Assembly: GCA_963581225.1 (NCBI GenBank)
Contig: CAUZMW010000003.1
Coordinates: 1-44,194, forward strand
Direction: 5' to 3'
Source of the DNA: Gammaproteobacteria bacterium
GTDB taxonomy: Bacteria > Pseudomonadota > Gammaproteobacteria > Steroidobacterales > Rariloculaceae
Length of the DNA: 44,194 nt
The notes beneath the pieces were generated by a model, which searched no databases, was not told where the DNA came from, and saw only the letters and a program-made list of their open reading frames with translations. Position 1 is the stretch's first letter; the number at the start of each line of letters is the position of its first letter. Made by a program: the position numbers and the translations under genes. Positions 2 through 10,506 of this stretch are shown in pieces.

Positions 2-529
2 ACCCGGACGCCGTCGGGCCAACCGCCTTTGCTCATCGACATGGCGATCCCGGCCGACATTGACCCGGAGGCCTGCGCGCAGCTCGATATCGAGCGCATC
101 GGCATGGATCGCATCACCCTCGAAGCCAAGACCAACCGCGGGGCGCGCCTGATCGAAGCGGCGCAAGCGCGCGAACTCGTCGACGAGGCCTTGTTAAGAC
201 TGCGCGATCGTTTCGCCGAGCGTGTCTACGGCCCGCTATTCGGCGCGCTGCAACAACGTTACCGGCATACGGCCCAGGAAGGCGTACAGCGACTGCTGAA
301 GAAGGAACTGAAAGGACTCGGCGTCGAAGAACGCGAAGCGATCGAGACCTGGACCGAAGTGCTGGCGCGGCGGTTCGCGCACATCCCCTGTCTCGGCCTG
401 CGCGGACTCCTCTATAACGGCCCCGACGGTTCACTGGACGCGTTCCTCGACGGCCTCGATCCCGAGTTCGCCGACGAATTGCGCCAGGCACTCGAACAGG
501 CATCGACACCAAAGCGGGCGGCGGGCTGA
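2..529 (+). CDS. hemA: Glutamyl-tRNA reductase, C-terminal part (5' end outside window)
   Basis: Frame open from the window edge; IDMAIPADIDP resembles the HemA IDLAVPRDID motif, followed by a helical dimerisation-like region; stop overlaps the hemC start. Confidence 0.8.
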   Translation, partial: TRTPSGQPPLLIDMAIPADIDPEACAQLDIERIGMDRITLEAKTNRGARLIEAAQARELVDEALLRLRDRFAERVYGPLFGALQQRYRHTAQEGVQRLLKKELKGLGVEEREAIETWTEVLARRFAHIPCLGLRGLLYNGPDGSLDAFLDGLDPEFADELRQALEQASTPKRAAG

Positions 530-1449
530 TGAAGATACGAATCGGCACGCGCGGCTCGCATCTAGCGCGCACCCAGGCTACAACCATAGCGACCGAACTC
601 GCCGAACTCGGCCACGAGACGGAGCTCGTCATCATCAGCACGGCCGGCGACCTGTCCGACGCGCCGAGTTTCGGCGCGATCGGCCCAACCGGCGTCTTCG
701 TACGCGAGATCGAACAGGCGTTACTCGACGATGCCGTCGACGTGGCCGTCCATTCGTTCAAGGACCTGCCGACCGAATCGCCTCCCGAACTCGTCATCGC
801 GGCGATACCGCAGCGCCACGACGAGGCGGACACGCTCATCATGACGCACGAAGCGAAGGCGGAGAAGCCCGGAAGCGTACCGATAAAAGACGGCGCGCGC
901 GTCGGCACCTCCTCCGCGCGGCGCCAGGCCTGGCTCAAACATCTTCGTCCCGATCTTCAGATCGAGCCACTACGCGGTAACGTACCGACGCGCATCGGCC
1001 GCCTGAACGACGACTTCGACGGCATCATACTTGCCGCTGCGGGGGTCACCCGGCTGCAGAAATCGGCGCTCGACGATCGTCCCGATCTCGATCTCGACGA
1101 GCGTATCCTCTGGCGACTCGACCCCAAGACGTTCGTACCCGCACCCGCGCAAGGTGCACTGGCGCTGCAGTGCCGCGCGGCGGACACGGAGGTTACCAGC
1201 GCGCTCACTATCCTGGGCCATGGCCCGACGCAACTTCATGTCGCCATTGAGCGCGCGTTGCTGATCCGCGTCGAAGGCAGTTGCGATCTCGCCTTCGGCG
1301 CCTATTGCGGGGAATCGAGTCGCGGCGACGGCACACTCGAACTCGTCGCCATGCTGGAGCACGATGACAGACTCATCGTCGCCAAGACTCACGGCAAGGA
1401 CCCCCACGCGCTCGTCGATATGGCCTGGGAAACACTGCAAGACCCATGA
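529..1449 (+). CDS. hemC: Hydroxymethylbilane synthase (porphobilinogen deaminase)
   Basis: IRIGTRGSHLA, AVHSFKDLP, GTSSARR, LRGNVPTR, PAPAQGAL and cofactor Cys in EGSC. Confidence 0.97.
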   Translation: MKIRIGTRGSHLARTQATTIATELAELGHETELVIISTAGDLSDAPSFGAIGPTGVFVREIEQALLDDAVDVAVHSFKDLPTESPPELVIAAIPQRHDEADTLIMTHEAKAEKPGSVPIKDGARVGTSSARRQAWLKHLRPDLQIEPLRGNVPTRIGRLNDDFDGIILAAAGVTRLQKSALDDRPDLDLDERILWRLDPKTFVPAPAQGALALQCRAADTEVTSALTILGHGPTQLHVAIERALLIRVEGSCDLAFGAYCGESSRGDGTLELVAMLEHDDRLIVAKTHGKDPHALVDMAWETLQDP

Positions 1450-2180
1450 ACGAGCTATCCGGACAGAGTGTGCTTCTCACGCGCAGCGAGGATGACTGCG
1501 CGGACTGGGCGCAGGAACTCGAAGCGATGGGCGCTACGGCTGTGATACTGCCGTGTATACGTAGCGAGCAGATCGACACCGCCGAACTTCGCGAGCGAAT
1601 CTCGGCCAGCTTGCCGCGTACCGACTGGCTCGTATTCACATCGAAGCGCGGCGTCGCAGCCTTCGTCGCGTTACATGGCGAGCCACTGCCCGATATCATC
1701 GGTATTGCCGTCATCGGACCGACGACCGCCGACGCGGCCGTCATCGCGTTCGGCCGCGCGGACCTCGTCAGCGAGGTGGGCACGGCCGAATCGTTGGCGC
1801 AGGCACTCGAGACGCACCTCACCGAACCCAACGCGCAGATCTTGATTGCCGTGGCGGAGAATGCAGGTTACACAATCGAGGATACGCTGCGTGCGGCCGG
1901 TGCGTACTGCACGCGGCTCGAGGTCTATCGAACCGTGGCGGCCGACGAGCTGACGCCGAAACAGGCGCTTTCGACATTCGATGCGGATAATGTATTTCTC
2001 GCGAGCCCTTCGGCGGTAACGGGTTTTACGAATCAGGTCGAATTGGACACACCGGCCGCGATCTTTACGATCGGACCGGCCACGAGCGAAGCGGCGCTGG
2101 ACGCCGGCCTCGAGGTGACGGGACAGGCGAGAAGCTCGGGGATCGAAGGATTGATGGAGGCGATGAGATGCGCGATATAG
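1446..2180 (+). CDS. hemD: Uroporphyrinogen-III synthase
   Basis: VLLTRS, WLVFTSKRGV, IGPTTA, VYRT, ASPSAV, IGPATS motifs; ATGA overlap with hemC. Confidence 0.9.
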   Translation: MNELSGQSVLLTRSEDDCADWAQELEAMGATAVILPCIRSEQIDTAELRERISASLPRTDWLVFTSKRGVAAFVALHGEPLPDIIGIAVIGPTTADAAVIAFGRADLVSEVGTAESLAQALETHLTEPNAQILIAVAENAGYTIEDTLRAAGAYCTRLEVYRTVAADELTPKQALSTFDADNVFLASPSAVTGFTNQVELDTPAAIFTIGPATSEAALDAGLEVTGQARSSGIEGLMEAMRCAI

Positions 2181-8051: not shown

Positions 8052-8059
8052 AAGGAACG

Positions 8060-9145
8060 ATGGCGAACACGCGCGACGCGAACGTCGATCACGAGGGCCA
8101 CGACTACGACGCCATACTCGTCGTGTCGTTCGGCGGCCCCGAGGGTCCCGACGACGTCGTGCCATTTCTCGACAACGTGCTACGTGGATTGAAGATCCCG
8201 CTAGCGGCCAAAGAGCGCATCGCGAAACGTTACGAGCACTTCGGCGGCGTCAGTCCGATCAACGCCGAGACGCGCGCGTTCATCGCGGCGCTCGAGAGCG
8301 AGTTACGCGCGCACGGCATCGACCTGCCCGTGTACTGGGGCAACCGCAACTGGCACCCGCTGCTGGCAGACACGCTCGAGAGAATGCAGGCAGACGGGAT
8401 CAAGCGAGCACTGGCGCACGTGACCAGCACGTTCGCCTCCTATAGCGGTTGCCGCAAGTACCGCGAGGATCTGTACGAGGCGACCGCGGCACTCGAGCAG
8501 CCGCTAGTCATCGACAAGCTGCGGCTCGGGTTTAACCATCCGGGGTTCCTCGCCGCGACCATGGGCCGTACACACCAGGCATTCGAAACAATACCCGCTG
8601 CGCGACGAGCCGAGACCCCACTATTGTTCACGGCTCACAGCCTGCCCAAGTCGATGGCTGAACATGCCCCCTACGAGGCGCAACTACACGAAGCCTGCGG
8701 GCTCGTCGCCGCGGCGCTCGAGCACGATGAATGGGCGCTCGCCTACCAGAGCAACAATGCAGCATATGGGGAGCCGTGGCTGGAGACTGATATCTGTGAG
8801 AAATTGCGGGACCTCGGCAGGCTCGGCGTGCAGGATGTTGTGGTGATGCCGATCGGCTTTGTCTGCGATCACATAGAGATCGTGCTCGATCTCGACATCG
8901 AGGCGCAAGCCGTCGCTGATGAAGCCGGCGTAAATATGGTCCGTGCGGCGACGGTCGGTGCGCATCCCACCTACGTCGGCATGGTCCGCGAGCTCATTGA
9001 AGAGCGCATGAGTTCGAATTCGGAACGGCTGAGCTTCGGCAGGCTCGGCCCAAGCCATGATTTCTGTCCCGCGGACTGCTGTCTATCGGGCCGACCCGGC
9101 GATCCGAAACCGGCGCTGTGTGGCGTCCCGGGAACCGAAGCTTGA
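8060..9145 (+). CDS. hemH: Ferrochelatase, actinobacterial-like (probable coproporphyrin ferrochelatase CpfC) with putative [2Fe-2S] cysteines
   Basis: SFGGPEG, YEHFGGVSPIN, VYWGNRNWHP, FTAHSLP, PIGFVCDHIE; YSGCRKY plus C-terminal CPADCC. Confidence 0.93.
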   Translation: MANTRDANVDHEGHDYDAILVVSFGGPEGPDDVVPFLDNVLRGLKIPLAAKERIAKRYEHFGGVSPINAETRAFIAALESELRAHGIDLPVYWGNRNWHPLLADTLERMQADGIKRALAHVTSTFASYSGCRKYREDLYEATAALEQPLVIDKLRLGFNHPGFLAATMGRTHQAFETIPAARRAETPLLFTAHSLPKSMAEHAPYEAQLHEACGLVAAALEHDEWALAYQSNNAAYGEPWLETDICEKLRDLGRLGVQDVVVMPIGFVCDHIEIVLDLDIEAQAVADEAGVNMVRAATVGAHPTYVGMVRELIEERMSSNSERLSFGRLGPSHDFCPADCCLSGRPGDPKPALCGVPGTEA

Positions 9146-10506
9146 CCGAGATTCACGAGCATGACGCGATCGTCATCGGCGCCGGCCTCGCGGGACTGGC
9201 CGCGGCGCTGAAGCTGCAGGCCGCGGGCGTCGATGCGCGGGTCATCGAAGCGCAGGATCGAGTCGGCGGCCGCGTGCACTCGATGCGCCAGTTGGGCAGT
9301 AATAAGGAAGCCGGCGGTACCTACATCGGCGCCGGTTATACGCGCGTCATCGGCGCGGCCGAACGCTATGGCGTCGGGCTCATCGACGTGACGCCGATGC
9401 TGGCGTTCTTCCGTGAGCAAGAACTCGTGCTTGGCGATGAAATCATCCGTCAGGCGGACTGGCCCGATCATCCCGCAAACCTGTTCCGCGGCGACGACAA
9501 GCCGATCATGCCGTGGGCGTATCACCGTTTGCTCACGGTGCGGGAGAATCCACTGACACAACCCGGCGACTGGCTCGCTGCCGACGCGGCCGCCTATGAT
9601 GTCTCGGCTTACGACTGGCTGAAGAGTCTCGGTCTCGACGACGACGCGATCAAGCTCGCCTATGGCATCAACGTCAGCTTCGGCAAGGACGCCCATGACG
9701 TCTCGGCGTTGTTGCTGTTTTTCCGTGCGGCCTTTTCCGTTGCGCAACGTCGCTTCGCGCCCGAGGGCATCGTCGGCTACACGGCCAGGAACGGCGTCGC
9801 CCGCATCCCCGAGACCATGGCCGAAGCGTTGAATCCACCGGCAGAACTGAACAAGGTGGTCGTGGCGATCACAACCCAGGCGGATCACGCCGAGGTACGT
9901 TGCGCGGATGGCAGTATCTATCGGGCGCCGCACATCGTGTGCTCGCTGCCGTTCGGCGTACTGCGGCACATCGACATGAATCCGCCGCTGCAGGGCCTGC
10001 AAGCTGAAGCGGTCAACACGCTGCCGGCGCAGGCCGTGACGCAGGTCTATCTCGCCCACAAATCCAATTTCTGGGAGGCGGACGGCTACACGGCGAGTCT
10101 ATTTACCGACGGCGTTGCCGGCATGGTAGCGGCCGCGAGAAACGGCGCCGACCCCGAGGAGGTCACGAGCTTTACGGCCTGGACGCTCGGACCGAACGCG
10201 AGCGTACTCGACGCGCTGGCGCCGGCCGATGCCGGCAGGCGCGTGATCGCGGAGATCGAACGCATACGGCCCGCCGCCAAGGGCCAGCTCGAATTTTTGG
10301 GGCTGAAGTCCTGGGGCACGGATCCGTTCGCTCAGGGCGGTTGGGCCTATTTCAAGCCCGGCCAGATCACGCGTTTCGGCGCCGCGATGGGCGCGCCGCA
10401 CGGCCAGATACGATTCTGTGGCGAGCACCTGGGGCGAGTCAGCCGCGGTATGGAAGGCGCGATGGAATCCGGCGAACGCGTCGCCGCCGAGATCCTCGAG
10501 TTATAA
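9142..10506 (+). CDS. FAD-dependent flavin amine oxidase family protein
   Basis: [35 protein letters not shown]...[12 protein letters not shown] start overlaps the ferrochelatase stop (TTGA). Confidence 0.88.

Follow-up and report, generated by a model that had tools for sequence, protein, structure and literature searches.

The coproporphyrin-dependent (CPD) route to heme b is described as almost exclusive to Gram-positive bacteria, with "some diderm bacteria" in addition (PMC10427985; PMC7611857), and HemQ is recorded from Acidobacteria, Planctomycetes and Deinococcus-Thermus (PMC5095920). Proteobacteria, except for Deltaproteobacteria, are said to encode mainly the protoporphyrin-dependent (PPD) route (PMC10740692), and according to a 2026 review the reported enzymes of the PPD, CPD and siroheme-based (AHB) routes cover all known heme synthesisers (PMC13564367). 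The split between CPD and PPD serves as a rationale for Gram-positive-specific drug targets, and exceptions to it therefore matter. Here we analysed a stretch of 44,194 nucleotides (the window) that forms positions 1 to 44,194, and so one end, of contig CAUZMW010000003.1 in the assembly GCA_963581225.1, a metagenome-assembled genome (MAG) of 2.55 Mb in 195 contigs, 96% complete and assigned to the gammaproteobacterial family Rariloculaceae. Positions 2..10506 hold eleven co-directional genes on the + strand, in the order hemA (3' part), hemC, hemD, hemB, hemL, a histidine kinase gene, a response regulator gene, hemE, and genes for a protein resembling the coproheme decarboxylase ChdC, for a ferrochelatase and for a flavin amine oxidase, which we call AOX. 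The locus follows the same logic as the CPD pathway of Actinomycetota, Bacillota and some diderms: three of the four terminal protein families are present (HemE, a CpfC-like ferrochelatase and the ChdC-like protein), and HemF, HemN, HemG and HemJ were likewise not found. It differs from that pathway in its host, a gammaproteobacterial diderm family, and in having all eleven genes, the two-component system included, in one operon. Its ChdC clade is shared with records titled Acidobacteriota, Chloroflexota, Kiritimatiellae, Verrucomicrobia, Elusimicrobia and Myxococcota and falls below the NCBIfam cut-offs for HemQ, and no CgoX is present, a flavoprotein resembling monoamine oxidase (MAO) standing in the operon instead.

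We read the locus, with moderate confidence, as an anciently acquired CPD operon that encodes the whole heme b pathway and in which the coproporphyrinogen oxidase has been replaced by a non-orthologous flavoprotein. Gene content and order, conservation, absences and relationships between families are what the sequences show; each enzymatic step, and above all the substrate of AOX, we infer from them and from what is established about the pathway. HemA, HemL, HemB, HemC and HemD would lead to uroporphyrinogen III, and HemE from there to coproporphyrinogen III. AOX would take six electrons from coproporphyrinogen III with O2, giving coproporphyrin III, with H2O2 as by-product. Insertion of Fe2+ would fall to the Cys-tailed CpfC-like ferrochelatase, and the ChdC-like protein would use H2O2 to convert coproheme to heme b by decarboxylation. 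At the base of the family the operon would have been taken up, or put together from foreign pieces, and would have displaced a HemF-type protoporphyrin route like that of the sister families, and the canonical HemY/CgoX would have been exchanged for a signal-less offshoot of an amine-oxidase-like family exported by twin-arginine translocation (TAT). The fuller proposal, to which we give an even chance, is that AOX is a so far unrecognised coproporphyrinogen III oxidase, the third kind beside CgoX and CgoN, recruited from that exported family through loss of its signal peptide, and that the bacterial family runs a complete single-operon CPD pathway under two-component control.

Genes were called from a listing of open reading frames (ORFs) together with Pfam and NCBIfam profile searches. 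A tblastn search of the operon proteins against the host genome found all hem genes in single copy and inside the operon, and the genome has one ferrochelatase and one gene of the chlorite-dismutase (Cld) family. In the host genome there was no match to HemF, to HemN (not even at the level of HemW), to HemJ, to a HemG-type flavodoxin or to CgoN/DUF1444, and no canonical HemY/CgoX scored over the cut-off, the best TIGR00562 match being 29.4 bits at the Rossmann end of AOX. These absences and the terminal module support a CPD-type route, by sequence, in a gammaproteobacterial diderm, as a preliminary description made from the letters of the stretch had proposed. That description was also right about the lack of hemF, hemN, hemG, hemJ and canonical hemY in the window, and about the overlapping or near-abutting junctions (overlaps of 1-13 nt or gaps of 1-10 nt by ORF coordinates). 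The eight heme genes that it listed were correctly named; its list left out AOX and the kinase-regulator pair, which are the strangest features of the operon, and it placed hemL beside hemE, between which the histidine kinase (4475-5560) and response regulator (5557-6273) genes lie. Its Gram-negative setting stands as well, since the window context is diderm and gammaproteobacterial: CysB scores 439.5 bits, CysG 556 bits and an AcrB-type resistance-nodulation-division (RND) pump 1042 bits, the pump being accompanied by genes for a membrane-fusion protein and an outer-membrane efflux protein.

The ChdC-like protein (7335..8051, + strand) is a putative coproheme decarboxylase of the chlorite-dismutase superfamily. 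Its match to PF06778 (45.5 bits against a cut-off of 25) covers residues 122-231 only, that is, the C-terminal half, and by sequence the protein forms a separate, divergent clade of the family. A profile of 17 clade members gave 20-35 bits with solved chains of ChdC and ChdC-like proteins but no more than 12-15 bits with chlorite dismutases, and the closest solved proteins to the operon protein are ChdC and ChdC-like chains. In HMMER alignments, Tyr139 and His162 align with the catalytic Tyr147 and the proximal His174 of Listeria monocytogenes ChdC, and also with Y135 and H158 of the C. diphtheriae enzyme; both are invariant in 17/17 clade sequences. The residue numbers of the two reference enzymes were checked against the chain indices. 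At the position of the Cld distal Arg (Gln187 in L. monocytogenes ChdC) the clade has an invariant Asp177, with an indel just before this stretch. The protein has no signal peptide. Genes of the same ChdC type are found in several phyla between hemE or hemB and a ferrochelatase gene, the order in Chloroflexota being hemB-chdC-hemE-ferrochelatase, and the type was found associated in genomes with hemE, ferrochelatase and a porphyrinogen oxidase. The operon protein is 49-58% identical to the products of such genes in records titled Vicinamibacterales, Anaerolineae, Elusimicrobia, Kiritimatiellae, Bryobacterales, Verrucomicrobia and Polyangiaceae.

The ferrochelatase (8060..9145, + strand) is of a long, Cys-tailed CpfC-like type, with 256.7 bits for PF00762, 145.4 bits for TIGR00109 (cut-off 124.6) and 376.8 bits for NF000689.1, slightly below the cut-off of 408. 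Its best solved match is 28wn, annotated as "Coproporphyrin III ferrochelatase" (242 bits), followed by the CpfCs of B. subtilis and Listeria at 123-130 bits and by animal enzymes at about 90 bits. It resembles the long ferrochelatase of the actinobacterial CPD pathway in this match and in Phe24, which occupies a site given as Phe in actinobacterial CpfCs by one review (PMC10427985). Residues C131, C336, C340 and C341 are invariant in 14/14 ferrochelatase sequences; the C-x3-CC spacing is no strict fit to the CX(1,11)CX(1,11)C pattern for [2Fe-2S] clusters as published (PMC8529089). The enzyme is 53% identical to that of the Kiritimatiellae record, 47% to that of the Bryobacterales record and 30-33% to those of Chloroflexota. 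Ferrochelatases of the same order are 23-29% identical to it at 16/26 loci, and the other 10/26 gave no match at E<=1e-5. The PF00762 scores are 257-263 bits in the host family versus 355-404 bits in most sister families. By sequence, characterised CpfCs are nearer to the operon ferrochelatase than is the PpfC of related diderms.

AOX (9142..10506, + strand) is a MAO-like oxidase that should bind flavin adenine dinucleotide (FAD), cytoplasmic by its lack of a signal, and our candidate coproporphyrinogen III oxidase. It begins at 9142 (TTG, in agreement with the Atlas record) or at 9118, is accordingly 454-462 aa long, and overlaps the ferrochelatase stop; PF01593 gives 166.9 bits. Against TIGR00562 it reaches 27.9-29.4 bits (cut-off 97.85) over the N-terminal 54 residues only, and against five canonical HemYs BLAST gave at most 40 bits over the first 50-70 residues only, while human MAO-B aligns end-to-end with 117 bits. 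We used an alignment-based structural model with a predicted local distance difference test (pLDDT) of 95.4 and discarded a single-sequence AlphaFold model (pLDDT 33.4). The model appears closest to bacterial MAO, putrescine oxidase (2yg3) and nicotine oxidases, at Z 37-39 with 23-24% identity over the full length, the best being the MAO of Thermoanaerobacterales (8p84, Z 39.3). Protoporphyrinogen oxidases lie further off in the model comparison (3i6d of B. subtilis, Z 29.2 with a root-mean-square deviation of 3.7 over 383 residues; 1sez, Z 27.7; 2ivd of M. xanthus, Z 26.7). AOX thus has in common with CgoX/HemY and PgoX the fold of the FAD amine-oxidase superfamily, and it takes the operon position held by HemY in other CPD operons, but its identity to them is only 13-15% and long branches separate them in the tree. 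Judged on these comparisons, AOX is neither a HemY orthologue nor a diverged HemY. A non-orthologous replacement of CgoX is likely, in the sense of about an even chance. A parallel would be CgoN (YtpQ/DUF1444) of Priestia megaterium, an alternative, non-orthologous enzyme that oxidises coproporphyrinogen independently of oxygen (PMC10965808); it belongs to another protein family, which as said was not found in the host genome.

AOX departs from the flavin amine oxidases as well, having Gln, Trp and Gly at the positions of Lys296, Cys397 and Tyr435 of MAO-B. The Lys296 position is Gln309, with Gln in 16/16 orthologues, and the Tyr435 position is Gly444, with Gly in 50/50 aligned sequences; at Y398 there is a gap with Trp409 beside it. 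We take Lys296 of MAO-B to act at the water near flavin N5, and Y398 and Y435 to form the aromatic cage; AOX has neither the conserved Lys nor the aromatic cage of the flavin monoamine oxidase family. An exhaustive search of representative proteins returned 17,266 AOX homologues, the nearest outside the orthologue cluster being 46% identical. A twin-arginine signal of the SRRxF type opens most of 34 sampled representatives and 0/16 operon-linked sequences. In a quick tree (the careful tree search is incomplete) the operon-linked AOX sequences form one clade, with 98 in the Shimodaira-Hasegawa-like approximate likelihood ratio test (SH-aLRT) and one long-branched stray, nested in the TAT-signal family and far from HemY. 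The AOX clade is set apart from the amine oxidases also by its predicted cytoplasmic location and its fixed place in the heme operon, its nearest relatives being TAT-exported. Only the operon clade keeps five arginines (R99, R111, R137, R203 and R211) without exception; they would suit a tetra-propionate substrate, though this is only a hint. The ESM Atlas returned for AOX only generic clusters named "flavin monoamine oxidase family". As an observation apart, proteins P0157-P0300 represent a large family of TAT-signal MAO-like flavoproteins, with Gly at the cage Tyr in 50/50 and the conserved Lys mostly missing.

The genomic setting of AOX is constant. It lies directly 3' of cpfC in 34/34 loci that extend past the ferrochelatase gene, and two of these, L048 and L050, retain the pair although their downstream context differs, which ties AOX to cpfC and not to cysH. 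Among the genomes of other phyla tested that carry the same ChdC type, 5/5 encode a canonical HemY that passes the cut-off (202-321 bits), which in the Kiritimatiellae genome follows immediately after chdC-hemE, so that an enzyme seems to be needed at the oxidation step. Canonical HemY over the cut-off was found in 0/6 closed or near-closed genomes of the host family.

We next consider how far the operon belongs to its host lineage. Searching one genome per species with the ChdC-like protein as query gave 56 loci, 39 of which are of a "gamma type" with 50-84% identity (best segment); their record titles are mostly Gammaproteobacteria or Ca. Rariloculaceae, with a few Rhodospirillaceae, Immundisolibacterales and Pseudomonadales. 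The gene order is the same in 34/34 related loci long enough to show it, and cysH follows AOX in 26/34, closed chromosomes included, usually with cysB-cysG-cysK behind it. The ChdC type is present in 21/24 other genomes of the host family, from 14 genera. The GC content is 0.62-0.66 over the operon and 0.56-0.65 elsewhere, without a step, and the 10.5 kb boundary is spanned by contigs from three independent metagenome runs (3140-11420 with 16 differences, 7977-11416 with 1 difference, and 9421-11420). Three kinds of locus stand somewhat aside. The Immundisolibacterales-titled L048 reads hemC-D-B-hemE-chdC-cpfC-oxidase, without hemL or the two-component pair. The Pseudomonadales-titled L050 reads kinase-regulator-hemE-chdC-cpfC-oxidase, without hemA-L upstream. 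Finally, L023, L027, L036 and L040, titled Rhodospirillaceae or Rhodospirillales, have the gamma-type operon with a ChdC 73-82% identical, and their taxonomic labels look wrong.

Beyond the family the ChdC type was not encountered in the sampled members of the class. At E<=1e-5 an even sample of 399 other Gammaproteobacteria gave no homologue (0/399; one more genome yielded no score), and neither did 16 genomes drawn from as many sister families in the order (0/16). HemF is over the cut-off in 61/81 genomes of the order and in 0/5 of the host family, the sister families using the classical HemF-type route. HemB (2168..3172, + strand; PF00490 450.8 bits; NF006762 457 bits against a cut-off of 297) is a porphobilinogen synthase of the Cys-motif (zinc) type, and its motif DVCLCAYTDHGHCG occurs in 0/21 HemBs of the same order. 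It is 51-57% identical to HemBs of Chloroflexota and some non-gamma Pseudomonadota versus 42-53% to those of the same order, and in a quick maximum-likelihood tree, which has no bootstrap and names no donor, the host-family clade stands apart from the clade of the order, both with SH-aLRT 100. HemE does not discriminate a donor, since its identity ranges are alike (39-45% to same-order HemE, 38-43% to the loci of other phyla). One same-order comparison genome, G039, is flagged as unpublished and makes up a single row in the tallies and trees. Taken by sequence, these comparisons support, in modified form, the horizontal acquisition that the preliminary description had proposed: the module is foreign to the class, as the two ChdC counts and the differing HemF, ferrochelatase and HemB of the sister families indicate, and it was acquired anciently. 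It may be a mosaic of foreign parts. A lineage in which the operon is ancestral had been named as a finding that would speak against the proposal, and at the level of the family this is what we see (21/24 genomes, 34/34 loci, no GC anomaly). Two observations touch the comparison set. L060, a MAG titled Cellvibrionaceae, shows the gene order of Chloroflexota, and very short branches place its HemB beside that of the Anaerolineae locus L053; this is more probably a binning error than a second gammaproteobacterial case. Five sister families (f3, f11, f15, f21 and f22) have no HemE match and no or weak HemF, some of them with a ferrochelatase or HemB, and may be heme auxotrophs or on another route.

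The most serious alternative, which we consider possible but doubtful, keeps the pathway coproporphyrin-dependent and denies AOX the porphyrinogen: AOX would act on amines or some other substrate and thereby supply H2O2 to ChdC, or would be a co-transcribed passenger, and the oxidation of coproporphyrinogen would proceed without an enzyme or through one that has escaped recognition. Several points count for it, or against the reading that we prefer. The nearest neighbours of AOX in sequence and fold are amine oxidases (monoamine, putrescine and nicotine oxidases) and not porphyrinogen oxidases. The changes from Lys to Gln and from Tyr to Gly are common to the TAT-exported paralogues and hence are no adaptation to a porphyrinogen. 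Homologues outside the clade are exported and without heme neighbours; L201, the closest non-operon homologue examined (48% identical to AOX), has no heme genes beside it, so that the linkage of AOX to heme genes is seen in one lineage only, its kin giving no independent case, and a metagenome scan with P0166 for heme-linked AOX homologues outside the lineage returned distant relatives only and added no support. ChdC requires H2O2 according to the review cited above (PMC10427985), and coproporphyrinogen, as porphyrinogens do, auto-oxidises in air, a background that was subtracted in the assay of one report (PMC5095920). Two of the 31 host-family genomes (G004 and G014) do have a canonical HemY over the cut-off, at G004:C13:1375-2757 (304 bits) and G014:C288:13783-15207 (270 bits), with no hem neighbours in the fetched stretches; these stand-alone genes may be genuine or may be binning contaminants. 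G004, which is 95% complete, lacks both the ChdC-like and the ferrochelatase gene. In all, three same-genus genomes, one of them 95% complete, are without these two genes, which also counts against our reading. The passenger or peroxide-supply role sits poorly, on the other hand, with the position of AOX behind cpfC at every locus, including the two with a different downstream context, with the loss of the export signal in the operon clade, with the missing aromatic-cage Tyr and conserved Lys of MAO, and with the retention of HemY by all carriers of the ChdC type in other phyla. Nor did the host genome, or 29/31 genomes of the family, yield another candidate oxidase.

A doubt of another kind concerns the Cld-family protein, which might instead bind heme, serve as a chaperone or be a chlorite dismutase, with heme made by a protoporphyrin route through an unknown decarboxylase and oxidase, or by the siroheme route; this we regard as improbable. 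It would fit the partial Pfam match, confined to the C-terminal half, and the scores far under both HemQ equivalog cut-offs (34.6 bits against 235 for the actinobacterial NF042928, and 22.7 against 253 for NF008913), and also an invariant Arg179, two residues past the position aligned to the Cld distal Arg; these scores and this residue weigh on our own reading as well. A cysG gene lies nearby, and the AhbA-D genes of the siroheme route were outside the search targets, which bears on our reading too, as does the fact that absences drawn from a 96%-complete MAG are no proof. This alternative is opposed by the conserved catalytic Tyr and proximal His, by the higher scores of solved ChdCs than of chlorite dismutases, by the invariant Asp at the distal position, by the placing of the gene next to ferrochelatase genes in several phyla and by the lack of a signal peptide. 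Moreover, HemE is present, and no HemF or HemN was found in the host genome. The siroheme route needs no HemE. Least probable by far, and already contradicted, is a recent horizontal insertion, or a chimera of Gram-positive-like DNA with a gammaproteobacterial contig arising in assembly or binning. Gene content atypical for the class and a fragmented assembly would agree with it. The shared order and cysH-cysB-cysG-cysK flank, the bridging contigs, the spread of the ChdC type through the family, the even GC content and the fact that these are the only hem genes of the genome all run counter to it. We regard chimera or misassembly, which the preliminary description had raised, as excluded by the conserved downstream synteny and the bridging contigs.

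As a whole, the locus is a variant of the known CPD pathway, acquired long ago and spread through one family of Gammaproteobacteria. At least half of the sampled words of the window stretch are present in 16 seawater, marine or vent metagenome runs, and an environmentally common marine family of Gammaproteobacteria appears to use the CPD route without a known enzyme for the oxidation of coproporphyrinogen. If AOX is that enzyme, the view that the known enzymes cover every heme-synthesising organism is contradicted. The locus makes it possible to test whether there is a third isofunctional coproporphyrinogen oxidase, how terminal heme modules pass from phylum to phylum and why CPD and PPD exclude each other. 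Full-text searches of the literature, subscription-only papers excluded, gave nothing on the route of this family or on a coproporphyrinogen oxidase of the amine-oxidase type, which is no proof of their being unpublished. We rejected one metatranscriptome run, X18, as evidence of expression. The operon is covered in part by its contigs, most of them 90-99% alike; these derive from relatives, and carry-over of DNA is possible.

The remaining genes of the operon, all on the + strand, gave clear assignments. The hemA gene for glutamyl-tRNA reductase (2..529) is truncated by the contig start to its C-terminal 175 aa (PF00745 27.8 bits; TIGR01035 positions 268-394); its orthologue in the relative L021 is full-length, with 444 aa, and is the first gene of the operon. 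It is followed by hemC for hydroxymethylbilane synthase (529..1449; PF01379 225 bits; TIGR00212 258 bits against a cut-off of 164), hemD for uroporphyrinogen-III synthase (1446..2180; PF02602 134 bits) and, after hemB, hemL for glutamate-1-semialdehyde 2,1-aminomutase (3169..4485; NF000818 575 bits against a cut-off of 398). Further on, hemE encodes uroporphyrinogen decarboxylase (6284..7333; PF01208 373 bits; TIGR01464 388 bits against a cut-off of 303) and starts with GTG at 6284, past the stop of the regulator gene. The membrane histidine kinase (4475..5560; HisKA PF00512 57 bits; HATPase_c PF02518 90 bits) was given the start ATG 4475, which is preceded by GGAGAA. Two predicted transmembrane segments, with a loop of some 75 aa between them, precede its HisKA and HATPase_c domains, and its N-terminal 142 aa gave no Pfam match at E<=0.01 and hence no recognisable sensor domain. 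Its partner (5557..6273; PF00072 103.6 bits; PF00486 77.7 bits) is a response regulator of the OmpR family, with 69-85% identity across related loci. The pair lies between hemL and hemE in 32/32 related loci that show both genes. Presumably it controls the operon, a guess from position alone, and it might tune the operon to an envelope signal.

Downstream of the operon lie cysH, cysB, cysG, cysK and a gene for the NADH dehydrogenase NDH-2, with the genes of the RND pump further on. The cysB gene (11490..12500, - strand) scores just over the NF009326 cut-off of 436, and cysG for siroheme synthase (12770..14206, + strand) well over the NF007922 cut-off of 400. A scan for promoters and terminators over 10300-12900 gave no signal above shuffled expectation. 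The cysH gene (10682..11392, + strand) encodes reductase for 3'-phosphoadenosine-5'-phosphosulfate (PAPS), and its PF01507 match is split across two ORFs by an in-frame TAA at 11006-11008, where the relative L021 has GAC (Asp). The stop is also present in the independent metagenome contig spanning 7977-11416, and since the single base difference of that contig lies elsewhere, the stop seems real in this population; the PAPS reductase may be inactive. Further along the window, and unrelated to the heme operon, two genes for PhoD-like phosphatases on the - strand (23565-25133 and 27517-29040) flank a PepSY-TM gene and a gene for a zinc-type alcohol dehydrogenase.

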